In this document: in pieces, positions 247-57,450 of the stretch | How the letters are laid out: each line of letters begins with the position of its first letter | Position numbering within the stretch: the first letter of the stretch is position 1 | Origin: Myxococcota bacterium | GTDB taxonomy: Bacteria > Myxococcota_A > UBA9042 > PHBI01 > JAWLBL01 | Length of the DNA stretch: 64,000 nucleotides | Assembly: GCA_041687695.1 (NCBI GenBank) | Contig: JAWLBL010000027.1 | Coordinates: 1-64,000 of the forward strand | Direction: 5' to 3' | Notes under the pieces: generated by a model | The model's database searches: none | What the model was told of the DNA's origin: nothing | What the model saw: only the letters and a program-made list of their open reading frames with translations | Position numbers and translations under genes: made by a program

Positions 247-286
247 ATCTTAGGTGCTCAGCGGGGGATGTCAACCACTTTTTTTT
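247..286 (-). promoter_or_regulatory. rrn promoter (proximal) with A-tract UP-like element
   Basis: TTGACA (269-274), 16 nt, TAAGAT (247-252); A8 tract upstream at 279-286. Confidence 0.85.
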
Positions 287-422: not shown

Positions 423-450
423 AGTCTATTCATTCGGCGTGTCTTGTCAA
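423..450 (-). promoter_or_regulatory. rrn promoter (middle)
   Basis: TTGACA (445-450), 16 nt, TAGACT (423-428). Confidence 0.8.
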
Positions 451-528: not shown

Positions 529-556
529 AATCTAGCCACGGCGGCCGAGGTGTCAA
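529..556 (-). promoter_or_regulatory. rrn promoter (distal)
   Basis: TTGACA (551-556), 16 nt, TAGATT (529-534). Confidence 0.8.
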
Positions 557-881: not shown

Positions 882-917
882 TGGGGAGGGAGGCTGGGGA
901 GGGAGGCTGGGGAGGGG
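882..917 (+). repeat. 13-nt G-rich tandem repeat (TGGGGAGGGAGGC, ~2.8 copies), G-quadruplex-capable
   Basis: GGGG-A-GGG-AGGCT-GGGG-A-GGG-AGGCT-GGGG-A-GGGG read directly. Confidence 0.7.
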
Positions 918-948: not shown

Positions 949-3900
949 GCGTGATCCCGCTGAGCCGTGGGCCGAGGCCTTGGCGGTTTCGGCTCGCGTG
1001 ATCCAGCCGGGGCGTTCGCCGACGCCTTGGCGAACCACCCCGCGTGATCCGGCCGAGGCGTGGGCCGAGCCCTTGGCGGTGGCGGCCCGCGTGATCCAGC
1101 CGAGCTCTTGGTGGTGGCGGTCCGCGTGATTCGGCCGAGCCGTGGGCGCAGGCCTTGGCGGTGGCGGCCCGCGTGAGCCAGCCGGGGCGTTCGCCGACGC
1201 CTTGGCGAACCATCCCGCGTGATCCGGCCGAGGCGTGGGCCGAGCCCTTGGCGGTGGCGGCCCGCGTGATCCAGCCGAGCTCTTGGTGGTGGCGGTCCGC
1301 GTGATTCGGCCGAGCCGTGGGCGCAGGCCTTGGCGGTGGCGGCCCGCGTGAGCCAGCCGGGGCGTTCGCCGACGCCTTGGCGAACCATCCCGCGTGATCC
1401 GGCCGAGGCGTGGGCCGAGCCCTTGGCGGTGGCGGCCCGCGTGATCCAGCCGAGCTGTGGGCCGAGGCCGTGGCGGTGGCGGCTCGTGTGATCCGGCCGA
1501 GCTGCGGGCCGAGGCCTTGGCGGTGGCGGCTCGTGATCCAGCCGACCCGTCGGCGGAGGCCTTGGCGGTGGCGGCCCGCGGCGGCCAACCGAGCCGTGGG
1601 CCAAGCCCTTGGTCGTGTCGCCTCGCGTGATTCAGCCGGGGCGTTCGCCGACGCCTTGGCGTACCGGCCCGCGAGGTCCGGCCGAGCTGTGGGCCGAGGC
1701 CGTGGCGGTAGTGGCCCGCGTGATCCGGCCGAGCCGTGGGCGGAGGCCTTGGCGGTGGCGGCTCGCGTGATCCAGCCGAGCTGTGGGCCGATGCCTTGGC
1801 GGTGTCGGCCCACGTGAGCCAGCCGAGCCGTCGGTCGAGCTCGTGGAGGTGTCGGCCCGCGTGGGCCAGCCGAGCCGTGGGCCAAGCCCTTGGCCGTGTC
1901 GCCTCGCGTGATCCAGCCGGGGCGTTCGCCGACGCCTTGGCGTACCGGCCCGCGAGGTCCGGCCGAGCTGTGGGCCGAGGCCGTGGCGGTGGCGGCCCCC
2001 GTGATCCGGCCGAGCCGTGGGCGGAGGCCTTGGAGGTGTCGGCTCGTGTGATCCGGCCGAGCTGTGGGCCGAGGCCGTGGCGGTGGCGGCCCGCGTGAGC
2101 CGGCCGAGCTGTGGGCCGAGGCCGTGGCGGTGGCGGCCCGCGTGAGCCAGCCGAGCTGTGGGCCGAGGCCGTGGCGGTGGCGGCCCGCGTGAGCCGGCCG
2201 AGCTGTGGGCCGAGGCCGTGGCGGTGGCGGCCCGCGTGAGCCAGCCGAGCTGTGGGCCGAGGCCGTGGCGGTGGCGGCTCGTGTGAGCCAGCCGAGCTGT
2301 GGGCCGAGGCCGTGGCGGTGGCGGCCCGCGTGAGCCAGCCGAGCTGTGGGCCGAGGCCGTGGCGGTGGCGGCTCGTGTGATCCGGCCGTGCCGTGGGCGG
2401 AGGCCTTGGAGGTGTCGGCTCGTGTGATCCAGCCGAGCTGTGGGCCGAGCCCCTGGCGGTGGCGGCTCGAGTGATCCAGCCGAGCCGTGGACGGAGCCCT
2501 TGGTGGTGGCGGTCCGCGTGATTCGGCCGAGCCGTGGGCGCAGGCCTTGGCGGTGGCGGCCCGCGTGATCCAGCCGAGCCGTGGGCGGAGGCCTTGGCGG
2601 TGGCGGCCCGCGTGATCCAGCCGAGCCGTGGGCGGAGGCCTTGGCGGTGGCGGCCCGCGTGATCCAGCCGAGGCCTTGGCGGTGGCGGCTCGTGTGATCC
2701 AGTCAAGTTGTGGGCGGAGGCCTTGGCGGTGGCGGCCCCCGTGATCCGGCCGAGCCGTGGGCGGAGGCCTTGGCGGTGGCGGCCCGCGTGATCCAGCCGA
2801 GGCCTTTGCGGTGGCGACTCGCGTGATCCGGCCGAGGTCTTGGCGGTGTCGGCTCGTGTGATCCAGCCAAGCTGTGGGCGGAGGTCTTGCCGGTGGCGGC
2901 CCGCGTGATCCAGCCCAGCCGCGGGCCAAGCCCTTGGGGTTGTCGGCTCGGGTGAGCCAGCCGAGGACCTGGCGGTGGCGGGCCGGTGATCCTGCCGAGC
3001 TGTGGGCCGAGGCCTTGGCGGTGGCGGCCCGCGTGGGCCAGCCGAGCCGTGGGCCAAGCCCTTGGCCGTGTCGCCTCGCGTGATCCGGCCGGGGCGTTCG
3101 CCGACGCCTTGGCGTACCGGCCCGCGAGGTCCGGCCGAGCTGTGGGCCGAGGCCGTGGCGGTAGTGGCCCGCGTGATCCGGCCGAGCTGTGGGTCGAACT
3201 CTTGGCGGTGTCGGCTCGCGTGATGCAGCCGAGCTGTGGGCCGATGCGTTGGCGGTGTCGGCCTGCGTGATCCAGCCGAGCCGTCGGTCGAGCTCGTGGA
3301 GGTGTCGGCCTGCGTGATCCAGCCGAGCCGTCGGTCGAACTCGTGGCGGTGTCGGCCTGCGTGATCCAGCCAAGCCGTGGGCGGAGGTCTTGGCGGGGGC
3401 CTCCCGCGTGATCCAGCCGAGGCCTTGGCGGTGGCCGCCCGCGTGAGCCAGCCGAGGCCTTGGCGGTGGCGGCCCGCGGCGGCCAACCGAGCCGTGGGCC
3501 AAGCCCTTGGCCGTGTCGCCTCGCGTGATCCAGCCGGGGCGTTCGCCGACGCCTTGGCGTACCGGCCCGCGAGGTCCGGCCGAGCTGTGGGCCGAGGCCG
3601 TGGCGGTAGTGGCCCGCGTGATCCGGCCGAGCTGTGGGTCGAACTCTTGGCGGTGGCGGCTCGCGTGATCTAGCCGAGCTGTGGGCCGAGGCCTTGGCGG
3701 CGTCGGCCCGCGTGATCCAGCCGAGCCGTGGGCGGAGGTCTTGGCGGTGGCCGCCCGCGTGGTCCAGCCGAGGCCTTGGCGGTGGCGGCTCGCGTGATCC
3801 TGCCGAGCCGTGGGCGGAGGCCTTGGCGGTGGCGGCCCGCGCGATCCAGCCGAGGCCTTGGCGGTGGCGGCTCGCGTGATCCGGCCGAGTCGTGGGCCGA

Positions 3901-4930
3901 GCCTTGGCGGTGTCGGCCCACGTGATCCAGGCGAGCCGTCGGTCGAGTTCGTGGCGGTGTCGGCCTGCGTGATCCAGCCAAGCCGTGGGCGGAAGCCTTG
4001 GCGGTGGCGGCCCGCGTGATCCAGCCGAGCCGTGGGCGGAGGCCTTGGCAGTGGCGGCTCGCGTGATCCGGCCGAGGTCTTGGCGGTGGCGGCTCGCGTG
4101 ATCCGGCCGAGGTCTTGGCGGTGTCGGCTCGTGTGATCCAGCCGAGCTGTGGGCCGAGGTCTTGGCGGTGGCGGCTCGCGTGATCCGGCCGAGGTCTTGG
4201 CGGTGTCGGCTCGTGTGATCCAGCCAAGCTGTGGGCGGAGGTCTTGCCGGTGGCGGCCCGCGTGATCCAGCCCAGCCGCGGGCCAAGCCCTTGGGGTTGT
4301 CGGCTCGGGTGAGCCAGCCGAGGACCTGGCGGTGGCGGGCCGGTGATCCTGCCGAGCTGTGGGCCGAGGCCTTGGCGGTGGCGGCCCGCGTGGGCCAGCC
4401 GAGCCGTGGGCCAAGCCCTTGGCCGTGTCGGCTCGCGGGATCCTGCCGAGCCGTGGGCCAAGGCCTTGGCCGTGTCGGCTCGCGGGATCCAGCCGCGGCC
4501 TTGGCGGTGGCGGCTCGCGTGATCCGGCCGCGCTGTGGGCCGAGGCCGTGGCGGTAATGGCCCGCGTGATCCGGCCGAGCTGTGGGTCGAACGGTTGGCA
4601 GTGGCGGCCCGGGTGATCCTGCCGAGCCGTGGGTCGAGGCCCGTGCGGTGTCGGCCCGCGTGATCCAGACGAGCCGTGGGGCGACGCTTGGCGGTGGCGG
4701 CCCGCGTGATCCAGACGAGCCGTGGGCGGAGCCCTTGGCGGTGGCGGCTCGCGTGATCCAGACGAGCCGTGGGCCGAGGCCTTGGCGGTGTCGGCTCGCG
4801 TGATCCTGCCGAGCTGTGGGCCGAGCCCTTGGCGGTGTCGGCTCGCGTGAGCCCGCCGAGGACCTGGCGGGGGCGGGCCGGTGATCCAGCCGAGCTGTAG
4901 GCCGAGCCCTTGGCGGTGGCGGCCCCCCGC
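949..4930. repeat. ~4-kb degenerate tandem satellite of 47-nt and 35-nt units
   Basis: Consensus about GCCGAGCCGTGG-GCCGAGGCCTTGGCGGTGGCGGCCCGCGTGATCCA. Exact 47-nt period at 2103/2150/2197. The 35-nt units lack the first 12 nt. Roughly 85-90 units, estimated from length. Confidence 0.97.
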
Positions 4931-4951
4931 TCGCGCGACCGGGGGGCCGCC
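4918..4951. other. 12-bp GC hairpin at the right end of the satellite
   Basis: GGCGGCCCCCCG, 10-nt loop, CGGGGGGCCGCC (perfect inverted repeat). Confidence 0.7.
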
Positions 4952-5267
4952 GATGCGAGGACCCCTCTCGCGCGTATTGGGGGAGGCGCGATCGATCGCA
5001 CGCGGATCGCGGGATCGCGGGATCGCGGGAGGGCCTCGTCGTGGCGGGGCGACCCGTGGCGACCTCGCGGCGGCAGGTCGGCGCAGCACACGAGGGAGCC
5101 GTTGGGAGATCGCGGCGTTCGACGAGGCGCTCCCCGGACGGCGCTCGACGAGCGTGTGCTGCTTTGGGTGGAGACCGCCGCAAGTCCGCTCCGTGAGGCG
5201 CGGCGCGTTGACACGGCCGCGGGGCGATCCGTAGCGTTACGAGCCGATCGGGCAAGGAGACGAGCTG

Positions 5268-6722
5268 ATGATCCTGCGGTACGTGCTTGCGGCCGGGCTG
5301 GCCCTGTTCCTGGTGGGCTGTGACGGAGCGTCGGGCGGGCCCGACGCGAAGGACGCCAGCGTGTCCACGGACACGGACGCGACGGGCGGGGACGGCAGCG
5401 ACGAGGACGGGACGACGGAGCCCGATCCGTGGGCGGCGCCGGAGGAGACGACCAGCTGGCGCGCTCTGTACAAGTACCGCGGCCGGCCCGGGTGCCCGAG
5501 CTCGGGCTCGAACGAGATCTGGCTGCACGATCCGGCGGCCGACACGACGAAGAAGCTGACGACGTTCGACGACATCGAGAACCTGGATCCGCCGGTGACC
5601 TGCAGCTACGGCTGCTTCGTCTCGGACGACGTGAAGTGGATCGCGGTCACGGTCGGGCCGCCGACCGCCGATGGGTTCAGCTTCCGGATCGGGCAGTTCA
5701 CGAACGCCAACATGGACGTGAAGCTGATCAAGGACCTGGTGCTCGAGGACAAGGTCGACTTCAAGTTCGCGGGATCGCGCCTGTACTACTCCGAGAAGGC
5801 GACCTGCGCGGGCGCCTCCTGCCAGTACGACATCTGGTATTACGATCTCGACAAGCTCACGCAGACCAAGATCCTGACCTTCCCGCCGGCGACCGAGCTC
5901 GAGCAGAGCACCTACAAGGGCCACTTCAAGGTCAGCCCGGACGGCGACAAGCTGATCCTGCTCAACACCACGATCCGGAGCGTCGGGGTGTACATGTGGA
6001 AGAGCGGGACCGGGCTGGTCGAGCTGGACTACCTGTGTAAGTTCGGGACCAAGGGCAACTGCCAGGGGACCGGATCGGAGTACGCGGACACCGACCCGGT
6101 CGCGATCTCGCACGACAGCCGACACGCCGTGTTCTTCACGTTCTCGGAGCGCTGGCAGCGGGCGCGGGTCTACCACCTGGAGGACCCCGGGGTGGTCGAG
6201 ACGGCCGTGCTGGCGAGCGTGCCGCAGGGGAGCTTCATCGAGAAGGCTTGTGAGTTCGGGGCGCTCGAGGACTGGCAGTGGCCCAGGGTCGTGGGGGACC
6301 CGATGTTCACGCCGGACGATCGGGAGGTCGTCTTCCTGACCGAACGCGACTGCGCCGGGCCCAACGGCAGCAAGCCCCAGAAGGCCCAACGGAACCTGGT
6401 GCGGGTCAAGCTGGACACCCTGCGTTCGGGCAAGACCCTGGAGGAAGCCGACATCTTCAACGTCACGCGCAGCCCGGCGGGCGACGTGACGGCCAACGTG
6501 TACGTGACGGCGTTCGATCTGACCCCCGATGGGGCGACGGTGATCTACACGGGCACGCCCAAGTACGGGCAGAGCGGCGATCTGCTGTCGGACTCGAGCA
6601 CCCGCAACCGCAACGATCGCGAGCTGTGGAGGGCGCGGCTGGACGGCACGAACGTTCAGCAGGTCACGAACGACCTATGCCTGCAGGCCGAGTCGCCCAC
6701 CGTGATCCCGCCCGGCCTCTGA
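5268..6722 (+). CDS. Lipoprotein, probable TolB-like/PD40 beta-propeller
   Basis: Lipobox LVGC, AGGAG RBS, recurring SPDG/TPDD/TPDG blade motifs, C-terminal RLDGTNVQQVT..AESP; possible TTGACA-18-TAGCGT promoter at 5208-5237. Confidence 0.75.
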   Translation: MILRYVLAAGLALFLVGCDGASGGPDAKDASVSTDTDATGGDGSDEDGTTEPDPWAAPEETTSWRALYKYRGRPGCPSSGSNEIWLHDPAADTTKKLTTFDDIENLDPPVTCSYGCFVSDDVKWIAVTVGPPTADGFSFRIGQFTNANMDVKLIKDLVLEDKVDFKFAGSRLYYSEKATCAGASCQYDIWYYDLDKLTQTKILTFPPATELEQSTYKGHFKVSPDGDKLILLNTTIRSVGVYMWKSGTGLVELDYLCKFGTKGNCQGTGSEYADTDPVAISHDSRHAVFFTFSERWQRARVYHLEDPGVVETAVLASVPQGSFIEKACEFGALEDWQWPRVVGDPMFTPDDREVVFLTERDCAGPNGSKPQKAQRNLVRVKLDTLRSGKTLEEADIFNVTRSPAGDVTANVYVTAFDLTPDGATVIYTGTPKYGQSGDLLSDSSTRNRNDRELWRARLDGTNVQQVTNDLCLQAESPTVIPPGL

Positions 6723-6880: not shown

Positions 6881-6921
6881 TTCGAAACGACAGAGGCCCG
6901 CGACGCGGAACGTCGCGGGCC
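6881..6921 (-). terminator. Hairpin terminator after etfA, with TTCGAA tail
   Basis: Stem GGCCCGCGACG/CGTCGCGGGCC (6895-6921) between convergent genes. Confidence 0.7.
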
Positions 6922-56306: not shown

Positions 56307-57164
56307 GTGCGCTTCAGCAAGTATCACGGTCTCGGCAACGACTTCGTGATCCTCGACGGCGGGCTCGAGGGTGTCGCCACCCCGTCGCGGGCCGACGTCG
56401 TGGCCCTGTGCCGGCGCGGACACGGCATCGGCGCCGACGGCGTCATGCTGGCACGCCCTCCCAGCGACCCCGCGCTGGCCGACCTGCGCATGGAGCTGGT
56501 CAACAGCGACGGCTCCATCCCCGAGATGTGTGGCAACGGGCTGCGCTGCTTCGTCAAGTACGCCGTGGACGCCCTGGGCCATTCGGCCAACCCGCTGCGG
56601 GTCGAGACCAACGGCGGCGTCCTGGCCTGCGTCTGGACGGCCGACGCGGCCGGCGTGCGCACCGTGCGCGTCGACATGGGCCGACCTCGCTTCGAGCGCG
56701 CGAGCGTCCCGGTGCAGGGCGAAGGCCAGGCCGACGAGGTGCAGGTCCCATGCGAGGACCGCGTCTTCGTCGCGACCGGCGTCAACACCGGCAACCCGCA
56801 CATGGTCATCTTCGGCGACGCCACCCTGGACACGGCGCTGCGCTGGGGGCCGCTGTTGACGACGCATCCCATGTGGCCCCAGGGCGCCAACGTCGAGTTC
56901 GCCGACGTCACCGGCCCCGACCACCTGACCGTCACGGTCTGGGAGCGAGGCTGTGGCCTGACGCAGGCTTGCGGCACGGGCGCCACGGCCACCGCGGCGG
57001 CCGCCGTGCGCCGCGGGCTGATGCCGTTCGACGCGCCCATCCGGGTCAGCCTGCCGGGCGGCGATCTGGCGATCACCATCGCCGAGGGCTTCCGCACGGC
57101 CTTCATGGAAGGTCCGGCGACCCTGGTGTACCGCGGCGAGCTGGCGCCGGGCTGGCGAGGCTGA
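56307..57164 (+). CDS. dapF: Diaminopimelate epimerase
   Basis: FSKYHGLGNDF, GIGADG, NSDGS..EMCGNG.RC, GNPH, WERG.G.T.ACGTG. Confidence 0.97.
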   Translation: MRFSKYHGLGNDFVILDGGLEGVATPSRADVVALCRRGHGIGADGVMLARPPSDPALADLRMELVNSDGSIPEMCGNGLRCFVKYAVDALGHSANPLRVETNGGVLACVWTADAAGVRTVRVDMGRPRFERASVPVQGEGQADEVQVPCEDRVFVATGVNTGNPHMVIFGDATLDTALRWGPLLTTHPMWPQGANVEFADVTGPDHLTVTVWERGCGLTQACGTGATATAAAAVRRGLMPFDAPIRVSLPGGDLAITIAEGFRTAFMEGPATLVYRGELAPGWRG

Positions 57165-57300
57165 GGCGAACGCCGCGTCGGCGAGGTCGAGGCGCGGTTC
57201 CGACTGGCGAGGCTGAAGCGCGCCCCGGGCTGGCGCGGCTGAAGGCGTCGCCGCGGCGGCGAGGCTGAGGCGCGCCCCGGGCTGGCGCGGCTGAGGGTGT
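57143..57300 (+). repeat. 26-nt degenerate minisatellite, 6 copies, starting in the dapF 3' end
   Basis: GGCG(A/C)GGCTGA-like core at 57154, 57180, 57206, 57232, 57258, 57284. Confidence 0.8.
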
Positions 57301-57332
57301 CGCCGCCCCCGGGTCGCCGGGCGCCGTGGCTT

Positions 57333-57450
57333 CCGAGGCGTTCGAAACGGAAGAGGCCAGGGCGCTGCCTGGCCTCTCGTCCCGATCACCGAGGCGTTCG
57401 AAACGGAAGAGGCCAGGGCGGTGCCTGGCCTCTCGTCCCGATCACCGAGG
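57333..57450 (-). terminator. Tandemly duplicated 56-nt terminator unit downstream of rplC
   Basis: 57333-57388 and 57389-57444 differ at one base; each has a GAGGCCAGG/CCTGGCCTC stem and a TTCCGTTTCGAA tail on the minus strand. Confidence 0.85.

Follow-up and report, generated by a model that had tools for sequence, protein, structure and literature searches.

A 4-kb non-coding satellite between the rRNA promoters and a lipoprotein-like gene of a Myxococcota bacterium, probably an old local expansion of a microsatellite

We propose that the tandem array which separates the rRNA (rrn) promoters from a lipoprotein-like gene at the left end of the window (the 64,000-nt stretch of contig C27 that was analysed) is probably an old, locally grown, microsatellite-derived non-coding satellite, a putative large VNTR that has no dedicated function and grew in a spacer able to accommodate it. 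Many repeat arrays in this genome appear to have grown in place, this one being apparently the largest of them. Matches to hexamer tracts, six block duplications, the 209 arrays of the genome and relatives that lack the array support this reading, as do the negative results for selected structure, codons and motif. The features of the locus are listed in Table 1.

Table 1. Features of the array and its surroundings (window positions)
Feature	Position	Strand	Basis or remark
16S rRNA 5' end, cut by the contig end	1..50	-	Rfam RF00177 positions 1-50, E 1.1e-8
rrn promoter-like site 1 (-35 box, 16-nt spacer, -10 box)	247..274	-	promoter scan
rrn promoter-like site 2	423..450	-	promoter scan
rrn promoter-like site 3, outermost	529..556	-	promoter scan; 393 bp from array
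13-nt G-rich mini-repeat, 2.7 copies	882..916	+	array left edge; fits three-tier G-quadruplex pattern
Satellite, 88 whole units and partial end units	949..4927	+	TRF and unit parsing; non-coding
Four-unit 175-bp block, ~2.5 copies	1006..1448	+	243-bp exact match at offset 175
Typical 47-nt unit	2573-2619		
256-bp block, first copy	2818..3073	+	identical to 4175-4430
Typical 35-nt unit	3849-3883		
256-bp block, second copy	4175..4430	+	identical to 2818-3073
8-bp GC inverted repeat	4921..4948	.	array right edge
Probable lipoprotein-gene promoter, perfect -35 box, weak -10 box	5208..5237	+	read from sequence
Lipoprotein-like gene, 484 aa	5268..6722	+	lipobox LVGC, read by eye

TRF gives a period of 47 nt across 949-4925, and parsing from 959 to 4888 resolves 88 whole units with a partial unit at each end, so that the ~4-kb array of 47- and 35-nt variants named in the original prediction is real. 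The units measure 47 nt (62 units), 35 nt (13), 46 nt (9), 34 nt (3) and 45 nt (1), and 66 of the 88 are distinct in sequence. The 47-mers match their own consensus with a mean identity of 89% and differ from each other by 16.8% in pairwise comparison. As predicted, the short form is a 47-mer without 12 nt, and the missing piece lies between two GCCGAG words; except for this step the unit length is conserved. Units of 46 or 47 nt make up 71 of the 88, a regularity beyond the rule given in the accessible text of PMC8161180 (at least 60% of units at one length ±1). All units share one orientation, the junction motif having 64 forward matches and no reverse match in the whole genome, and 12-column conservation of 0.86-0.93 all round the unit leaves no hypervariable spacer; both the single orientation and the lack of unique spacers had been read correctly. 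The + strand of the array is G-rich (skew +0.15). Self-similarity at lag 12 reaches 0.51 versus 0.32 (p 0.007, one of nine lags tried), and at lag 6 the p value is 0.07.

The array carries six block duplications, each spanning 3-6 units; the list of blocks demanded equal unit lengths, and its two longest entries agree with exact repeats. Among the 47-mers, neighbours differ at 7.3 positions (Hamming distance) and distant units at 7.9, a near-equality that fits long shuffling. We suggest that a G-rich hexamer microsatellite tract of the GCCGTG/GCCGAG type may have decayed into the unit, which would then consist of roughly eight hexamers minus one base and keep a sub-period of 12 nt. Replication slippage and unequal exchange would have amplified this unit, exchange placing copies of 3-6-unit blocks beside the originals and as far as 1.9 kb from them, and slippage between the two GCCGAG words would have created the 35-nt form. 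The array could have persisted because a spacer between divergent promoters tolerates extra DNA and because tandem repeats expand easily in this genome. The growth may have been promoted by negative supercoiling behind the three strong rrn promoters, and also by the G-rich strand, which can form weak hairpins and two-tier G4 motifs.

Hexamer tracts of this kind occur elsewhere in the genome. BLAST with the array weakly matched 19 other regions, and the 14 that were read comprised 12 intergenic hexamer tracts and two stretches of coding low-complexity DNA. A scan for hexamer tracts placed 30 of 38 between genes; the words that it looked for came from the unit itself, which makes their density inside the array a circular measure. 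The orientation of the tracts gave no signal relative to local GC skew (18/30).

Tandem repeats are abundant in this genome, with ~209 non-coding arrays of at least four copies, a figure that includes a few coding arrays (e.g. C12:198990 and C50:23786) because the gene caller misses some Cys-rich genes; a gene-model-free count gives 76. Periods of 21-22, 26-28 and 41-44 nt are common, and a period of 47 nt occurs once among the 209, so the unit length is not one shared by many unrelated arrays. Both MutS and MutL domains are present, and loss of mismatch repair does not explain the array.

The array occupies this locus only, as a search of the rest of the genome confirmed: the best profile hit outside it has an E value of 0.12, and no 24-mer is shared. 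Its exact pattern had no match in metagenome contigs and three single matches, all in Actinobacteria and none an array, in GTDB genome contigs. With two mismatches allowed, the 107 genomes of the class yielded six isolated hits in five other genomes, and the four loci checked held no array. BLAST of 40 relatives returned weak short matches in 17, and the seven best loci proved to hold hexamer tracts, low-complexity coding sequence or a single short match.

The spacer itself varies among relatives. An rRNA leader lies upstream of the lipoprotein orthologue in 12 of 20 relative regions, at a distance of 0.45-0.8 kb (six), 1.5 kb (one) or 2.3-2.7 kb (five), and the other eight have no leader within the stretch compared. 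Loci that keep the rRNA-lipoprotein synteny (these 12 and three from metagenomes) carry an array at that place in 0 of 15 cases. The region around the best orthologue (G004, 58% identity) stops within a poly-G run 182 bp upstream and gives no information on the array. As all relatives compared lie outside its own family or genus, and the collections hold no genome from within, their lack of an array is compatible with a neutral array and with a lineage-specific function alike.

Several observations weigh against a neutral satellite. Of the arrays whose period is at least 20 nt and not divisible by 3, the runner-up in copy number has 16.8 copies, against 88 units here, and the second in length measures 897 bp. 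Bacterial deletion bias should shrink useless DNA, and the 16.8% divergence marks the array as old, so a useless 4-kb array should have shrunk by now. Conservation of unit length save for the 12-nt step, and the presence of MutS and MutL, point the same way.

A structural cis-element, a nucleoid-protein platform or supercoiling buffer that would insulate or position the rrn operon, is possible though unlikely. The array adjoins three rrn promoters, is an outlier in both age and size, and could be the outsized member of a lineage-specific system of ~50 arrays of 41-44 nt. The genome carries 49 non-coding arrays with a period of 41-44 nt, and of the 51 arrays of period 40-47, which form 40 sequence families, 21 carry a significant palindrome. 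Satellites of constant length have been proposed to bind nucleoid proteins in bacteria, according to the portion of PMC8161180 available. The motif GG-N-GG-N-GG-N-GG is ~40-fold denser in the array (44 hits) than genome-wide, although the presence of one motif in each unit accounts for this excess. Against such an element, the starts of the units are not phased at 10.5 bp (R 0.01; best period 11.7), 47 nt corresponding to ~4.5 helical turns and 35 nt to ~3.3; the palindrome of the unit is no better than in shuffles (p 0.50), and the unit joins no family of the other 40-47-nt arrays. The parS-core sites and dnaA sit on contig C18 and not on the array contig, and in the complete relative G006 the lipoprotein gene lies ~2.5 Mb from dnaA. 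Moreover, the same rrn locus works without an array in relatives.

A bolder version, quite unlikely in our judgement, would make the array a eukaryote-like higher-order satellite kept by selection: a predicted rrn nucleoprotein platform or topological insulator, and the centre of a lineage-specific system of satellites, to which the ~50 palindrome-bearing 41-44-nt arrays would belong as smaller members and which an undescribed DNA-binding protein would read.

The original prediction had also drawn attention to a GATC site in most units. The site is indeed present in 60 of 88, but its weak conservation does not favour a role: its T varies in 21% of distinct units, where the mean is 11%, and the genome as a whole has fewer GATC sites than expected (O/E 0.83). 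Nothing suggests that the site is under selection. The genome has two strong Dam-family genes.

It is very unlikely that the array is shorter or differently ordered in the cell, the assembler having chained strain variants or duplicated blocks. The size is an outlier, but this assembly, of short-read type, is interrupted at other arrays: tandem arrays abut 20 of the 29 N gaps and 17 of the 126 contig ends, and the array contains two exact repeats (256 and 243 bp) that are longer than a short read. Assemblers, however, usually collapse tandem repeats, and here 3498 of 3884 99-mers are distinct, which leaves at least ~3.5 kb non-redundant; three quarters of the units (66/88) likewise differ from one another. 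The array contains no N, both flanks are single-copy, and the order of rrn and lipoprotein gene is the same in relatives.

It is also highly improbable that the array gives rise to a repetitive non-coding RNA built from hairpin units, or to a precursor processed into small RNAs. Satellites of B. coagulans are reported as transcribed in the part of PMC8625621 consulted, and a 600-nt piece of the + strand folds at z -5.2 against plain dinucleotide shuffles. Such shuffling, however, destroys the periodicity and is an unmatched control; when the unit was permuted and the repeat kept, z fell between -1.0 and +0.8 in 12 of 12 tests, and the -5.2 was discarded as a sign of selected structure. The minus-strand piece gave z -1.4, and single units, folded as RNA, averaged z -0.44 (+) and +0.03 (-) (n=66). 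Two candidate hairpins lack covariation, 187 and 263 of 500 shuffles reaching the observed score, the RNAalifold consensus amounts to just -3.2 kcal/mol, no Rfam family reaches its threshold, and the promoter scan found no consensus promoter directed into the array. The complementary segments named in the original prediction exist but fold no better than matched controls, and neither a folding excess nor a conserved structure with covariation speaks for a repetitive structured RNA.

A mobile or catalogued repeat, whether REP/BIME elements moved by RAYT, a CRISPR array or plasmid or phage iterons, is exceedingly improbable. REP/BIME arrays come with a RAYT transposase, and Y1_Tnp has 11 matches in the genome, of which 10 pass the cut-off; the array is intergenic and GC-rich, and GTGG precedes an imperfect 14-nt palindrome in its unit, an arrangement that we take to be loosely REP-like. 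Yet none of the 11 matches lies on C27, the repeat is neither dispersed nor in more than one orientation, and we found neither a conserved palindrome nor a cognate RAYT flanked by the repeat. Variable spacers are absent, so the repeat does not alternate with unique spacers as in a CRISPR array, and no Rfam CRISPR family matched. Viral contigs gave no array match, nor did phages and plasmids by blastn, a search that its low-complexity filter may weaken. Confinement to one locus speaks strongly against this whole group of readings, and the selfish element suggested earlier finds no support as a mobile one. Replication iterons are iterated direct repeats with a unit length similar to that of the array. 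So is the F-plasmid sopC centromere, with 12 direct repeats of 43 bp, each containing a 16-bp inverted repeat, as described in the accessible part of PMC3177203. Unlike both, the array has no adjoining par or rep gene or origin, no significant palindrome and no helical phasing.

There is next to no chance that the array is a coding repeat, encodes a frameshifted protein or is what remains of a repeat gene (both unit lengths, 47 and 35, equal 3n-1): minus-strand frames do run open for 977-1581 codons, but all six frames score negative for codon usage (means of -0.53 to -0.60, against a median of +0.40 and a 1st percentile of +0.09 for 3100 genes of >300 aa), GC is flat across codon positions, unit variability ignores them (0.116, 0.122 and 0.101; p 0.89), and each + strand frame holds 26-30 stops, in keeping with the original view that the long frames are non-coding.

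The preferred reading, a neutral satellite, places the array in a published class. In the sections of PMC6749651 (Subirana and Messeguer 2019) at hand, a satellite is at least four tandem units of 10-200 nt, which covers these 88 non-coding units of 34-47 nt, and microsatellite-derived, species-specific satellites are described, 40.1% of bacterial satellites being unique. The likeness extends to head-to-tail order, apparent microsatellite ancestry and the lack of a known function, and the 46-nt intergenic families of Leptospira interrogans in the same excerpts come close in unit length. In Table S4 of that survey, which covers 119 species, the 32 longest bacterial satellites include just two whose period is not divisible by 3, neither of which reaches 1.8 kb (1.76 and 1.52 kb), in agreement with the expectation that multi-kb non-coding satellites are uncommon. 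The array differs in being confined to one locus rather than a dispersed family, and in its two unit lengths and higher-order blocks. At 3.98 kb and 88 units it is also longer, a claim of size set against 119 species that the longest non-coding arrays of a J Bacteriol survey, which reportedly covered 12,233 genomes, could lower. Bacterial constant-length repeats include a '22/44' class. The host genome, with its peaks of unrelated sequences at 21-22 and 41-44 nt, fits the constant-length, variable-sequence repeats (20-21 and 52 nt) of PMC8161180, as far as its available text goes, whereas the array lies off these peaks, tolerates two lengths and belongs to none of the sequence families of the 41-44-nt arrays. 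The term undescribed element was thus too strong, given ~200 other non-coding arrays in the genome and this literature, consulted in part. Judged by titles and the beginnings of abstracts, none of the papers listed described such an array at an rrn promoter, and a search for intergenic tandem-repeat satellites of Myxococcota gave no match.

If neutral, the array would be an extreme example of its class, indicating that a bacterial chromosome that has MutS and MutL can build a 4-kb higher-order satellite out of a microsatellite and retain it, and would be of use as a strain marker. Were it functional, it would offer a large single-locus test case, beside an rRNA operon, for the role of bacterial non-coding satellites. 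As the collections searched hold no close sequenced relative, direct testing would draw on metagenomic data and heterologous assays.

The neighbours of the array are rrn, lipoprotein, ETF and TetR genes. The 16S rRNA match scores below the gathering threshold because it is truncated, and three promoter-like sites were found where shuffles predict 0.1. The array does adjoin these promoters, but the gap after position 556 means that it is not directly behind them. A flank motif shared at 877 and 4975 was considered as a target-site duplication and rejected, having been picked after the fact; the flanks align no better than random intergenic pairs (207/500 as good). The pattern of the right-edge inverted repeat, derived from that site, matches the genome there only. 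The lipoprotein-like gene belongs to no Pfam family and is matched in 92 of 107 class genomes, G000 included. Its probable promoter is absent from the output of the scan that found the rrn sites, and a similar motif was seen by eye upstream of the G009 and G015 orthologues.

The array is real, confined to a single locus, old and unusually large. The assembly that carries it comprises 7.97 Mb in 63 contigs at 73% GC, with the window at the start of contig C27, and TRF reports a period of 47 nt across positions 949-4925. Parsing yielded 88 whole units, 62 of 47 nt, 13 of 35, nine of 46, three of 34 and one of 45 nt, with partial units flanking both ends; 66 of the 88 are distinct. All lie on the same strand, the junction motif giving 64 forward and no reverse matches in a pattern scan of the genome, and column conservation detected no hypervariable segment at any part of the unit, which rules out a CRISPR-like array. 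The original prediction of tandem 47/35-nt units in one orientation, without unique spacers, was accurate by TRF, parsing, strand scan and column conservation. As 3498 of 3884 99-mers in the array are distinct, its longest exact repeats are 256 and 243 bp, and its flanks are single-copy in the genome with gene order as in relatives, at least about 3.5 kb of its sequence is non-redundant; unit order and exact length are as assembled.

Since the predicted rrn promoters point left and the probable lipoprotein promoter lies on the right, the array appears to be placed between divergent promoters, beginning 393 bp from the outermost rrn promoter. A promoter scan of the surroundings found no consensus promoter directed into the array. 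The rrn leader is present once in the assembly, from which a full 16S gene is absent.

Features of the array locus and related elements of the genome (positions without a contig name are those of the window)
Feature	Position	Strand or side	Basis
5' end of 16S rRNA	1-50	minus	rRNA match
Three sigma-70-like promoters, leftward (predicted)	274, 450, 556	minus	promoter scan
Satellite array	949-4927	plus	
Probable lipoprotein-gene promoter	5208-5237	right of array	read by eye
Lipoprotein-like gene, 484 aa, without Pfam match	5268-6722	right of array	Pfam search
Recurrence of the 17-nt motif	6881-6897		
26/52/78-nt array, then 56-nt duplication	57144-57450		
Hexamer tracts (examples)	C7:70332-70796, C26:25841-26079, C34:66861-67106		word count
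41-44-nt arrays (examples)	C8:3791-4334, C19:163810-164352, C42:13775-14047		
24-31-nt family (examples)	C1:169083-169534, C4:342369-342781, C6:92567-92839		
Dam-family (D12) methyltransferase genes	C37:58876-59751, C33:66668-67552		
Three clustered parS-core palindromes	C18:98858-99112		

The array is non-coding. With a codon model trained on the genome itself, each of the six frames of the array had a negative score, -0.53 to -0.60 per codon, where 3100 long genes have a median of +0.40; GC stays at 0.75-0.76 across the codon positions, and among 48 distinct 47-mers the variation showed no relation to codon position (p 0.89). These results bear out the earlier reading of the array as non-coding despite its long minus-strand ORFs, which reflect a strand that happens to be free of stop codons.

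No 24-mer of the array occurs in the rest of the genome, where a unit profile search gave a best E of 0.12, and pattern and BLAST searches of GTDB genome, metagenome and viral contigs, phages, plasmids and 107 genomes of the class detected no second array. The BLAST comparison proposed in the original prediction thus returned a single locus and no copies in relatives. As the searched genomes lie outside the family and genus of the host, all that this absence shows is a lack of deep conservation of the array. Matches to the lipoprotein gene came from 92 of the 107 class genomes, and 12 of 20 relative regions have the rRNA leader upstream of that gene, at 0.45-0.8 kb (six), 1.5 kb (one) or 2.3-2.7 kb (five, the intervening DNA looking coding by eye); here the distance is 5.2 kb. 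A long array is absent from this spacer in all 12 regions, and three metagenome loci concur. Because relatives differ in distance and have no array, spacer length is variable within the class, and the rrn locus does not need an array to work. In six loci (L040, L042, L044, L047, L048 and L073, from genomes of family f3 and from a single metagenome contig) the place of the array, between the rrn promoters and the lipoprotein gene, is taken by ~2 kb of DNA that looks coding; it seems to comprise two genes, one of which has a repetitive tail rich in Asp, Ser and Cys. The lipoprotein-like gene is often found beside an rrn operon in class genomes, yet belongs to no Pfam family.

We consider it probable that the array is a satellite of microsatellite origin, grown in a spacer where added DNA is tolerated. 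Weak BLAST matches to the unit in the genome comprise 19 short regions only, and 12 of the 14 that were read are intergenic GCCGTG/GCCGAG-type hexamer tracts, of which we counted 30, G-rich and of one word family. The 47-nt unit is itself legible as eight such hexamers minus one base, its self-similarity at lag 12 has a p of 0.007 (one of nine lags), and the 35-mer is the 47-mer without exactly the 12 nt that separate two GCCGAG words. Blocks of 3-6 units are duplicated, both adjacently and 0.45-1.9 kb apart, pairwise unit divergence is 16.8%, and adjacent units are hardly closer in sequence than distant ones. Unit anatomy, blocks and divergence are consistent with growth that would have proceeded by slippage and unequal exchange over a long time. 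The genome encodes MutS and MutL domains. Hexamer tracts of similar type also occur in two relatives (G006 and G008).

Age and size are the main arguments that the array has a structural function for the rrn locus, as a binding platform, but we regard this as unlikely, as unit starts show no 10.5-bp phasing, the unit holds no significant palindrome, and the parS-core sites lie with dnaA on contig C18 and not on C27. The C18 sites include three clustered palindromes about 52 kb from dnaA, a likely chromosomal centromere. GATC is present in most units (60 of 88), as originally noted, but a role for the site was not supported, its conservation falling below the unit average. Two Dam-family genes are present in the genome, and inspection of their surroundings by eye revealed no obvious restriction enzyme. 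The density of a two-tier G4 motif in the array is about 40 times its genome-wide value, but 23 of 62 units carry a change at one and the same G column; the motif may contribute to instability and gives no argument for selection. The repetitive ncRNA of folding units that had been proposed found no support: single units fold to an average degree, the z of -5.2 for a 600-nt piece against plain shuffles vanishes once the control keeps periodicity (12 tests, -1.0 to +0.8), covariation is absent from two candidate hairpins across 48 distinct units, and the consensus fold is weak. A REP system was rejected, as none of the 11 Y1_Tnp matches in the genome is on C27 and no dispersed units were found.

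The probable microsatellite-derived satellite falls under the definition of a non-coding prokaryotic satellite given in PMC6749651, and in Table S4 of that survey, which covers 119 species only, the 32 longest bacterial satellites include just two whose period is not a multiple of 3, both shorter than this array, in keeping with the earlier statement that multi-kb non-coding satellites are uncommon. After merging, TRF gave 942 arrays in the genome, 409 outside gene calls and 209 of these with at least four copies (a few of them genes missed by gene calling), with period peaks at 6 (36 arrays), 21-22 (17), 26-28 (25) and 41-44 nt (49). Counted free of gene models, 76 arrays, or 9.5 per Mb, have a period of at least 20 that does not divide by 3, and the same count over an 800-kb sample of four relatives gave two. 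Our array is the largest, its 88 units comparing with no more than about 17 copies in the runner-up, but the ranking is insecure: arrays adjoin 20 of 29 N gaps and 17 of 126 contig ends, so assembly may have truncated younger arrays of greater uniformity, while this one could have assembled through its divergence.

The 49 non-coding arrays of 41-44 nt have a period of about four helical turns, and the 51 arrays of period 40-47 fall into 40 sequence families, with a significant palindrome in 21. In the 800 kb from the four relatives no 41-44-nt array was found, against about 5.5 expected at the rate of this genome. As the constant-length class is outlined in PMC8161180, these arrays resemble one, whereas the rrn-linked array itself is no member; the period-locked set may hold more interest than the latter. 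Arrays of 24-31 nt form a dispersed family with one common palindromic core, often at contig ends, and are possibly REP-derived in view of the Y1_Tnp matches. Within the window, a 26/52/78-nt array and, after it, a 56-nt duplication lie between convergent genes; the duplication contains a 17-nt motif that is found again at 6881, and the genome has three matches to it in all.
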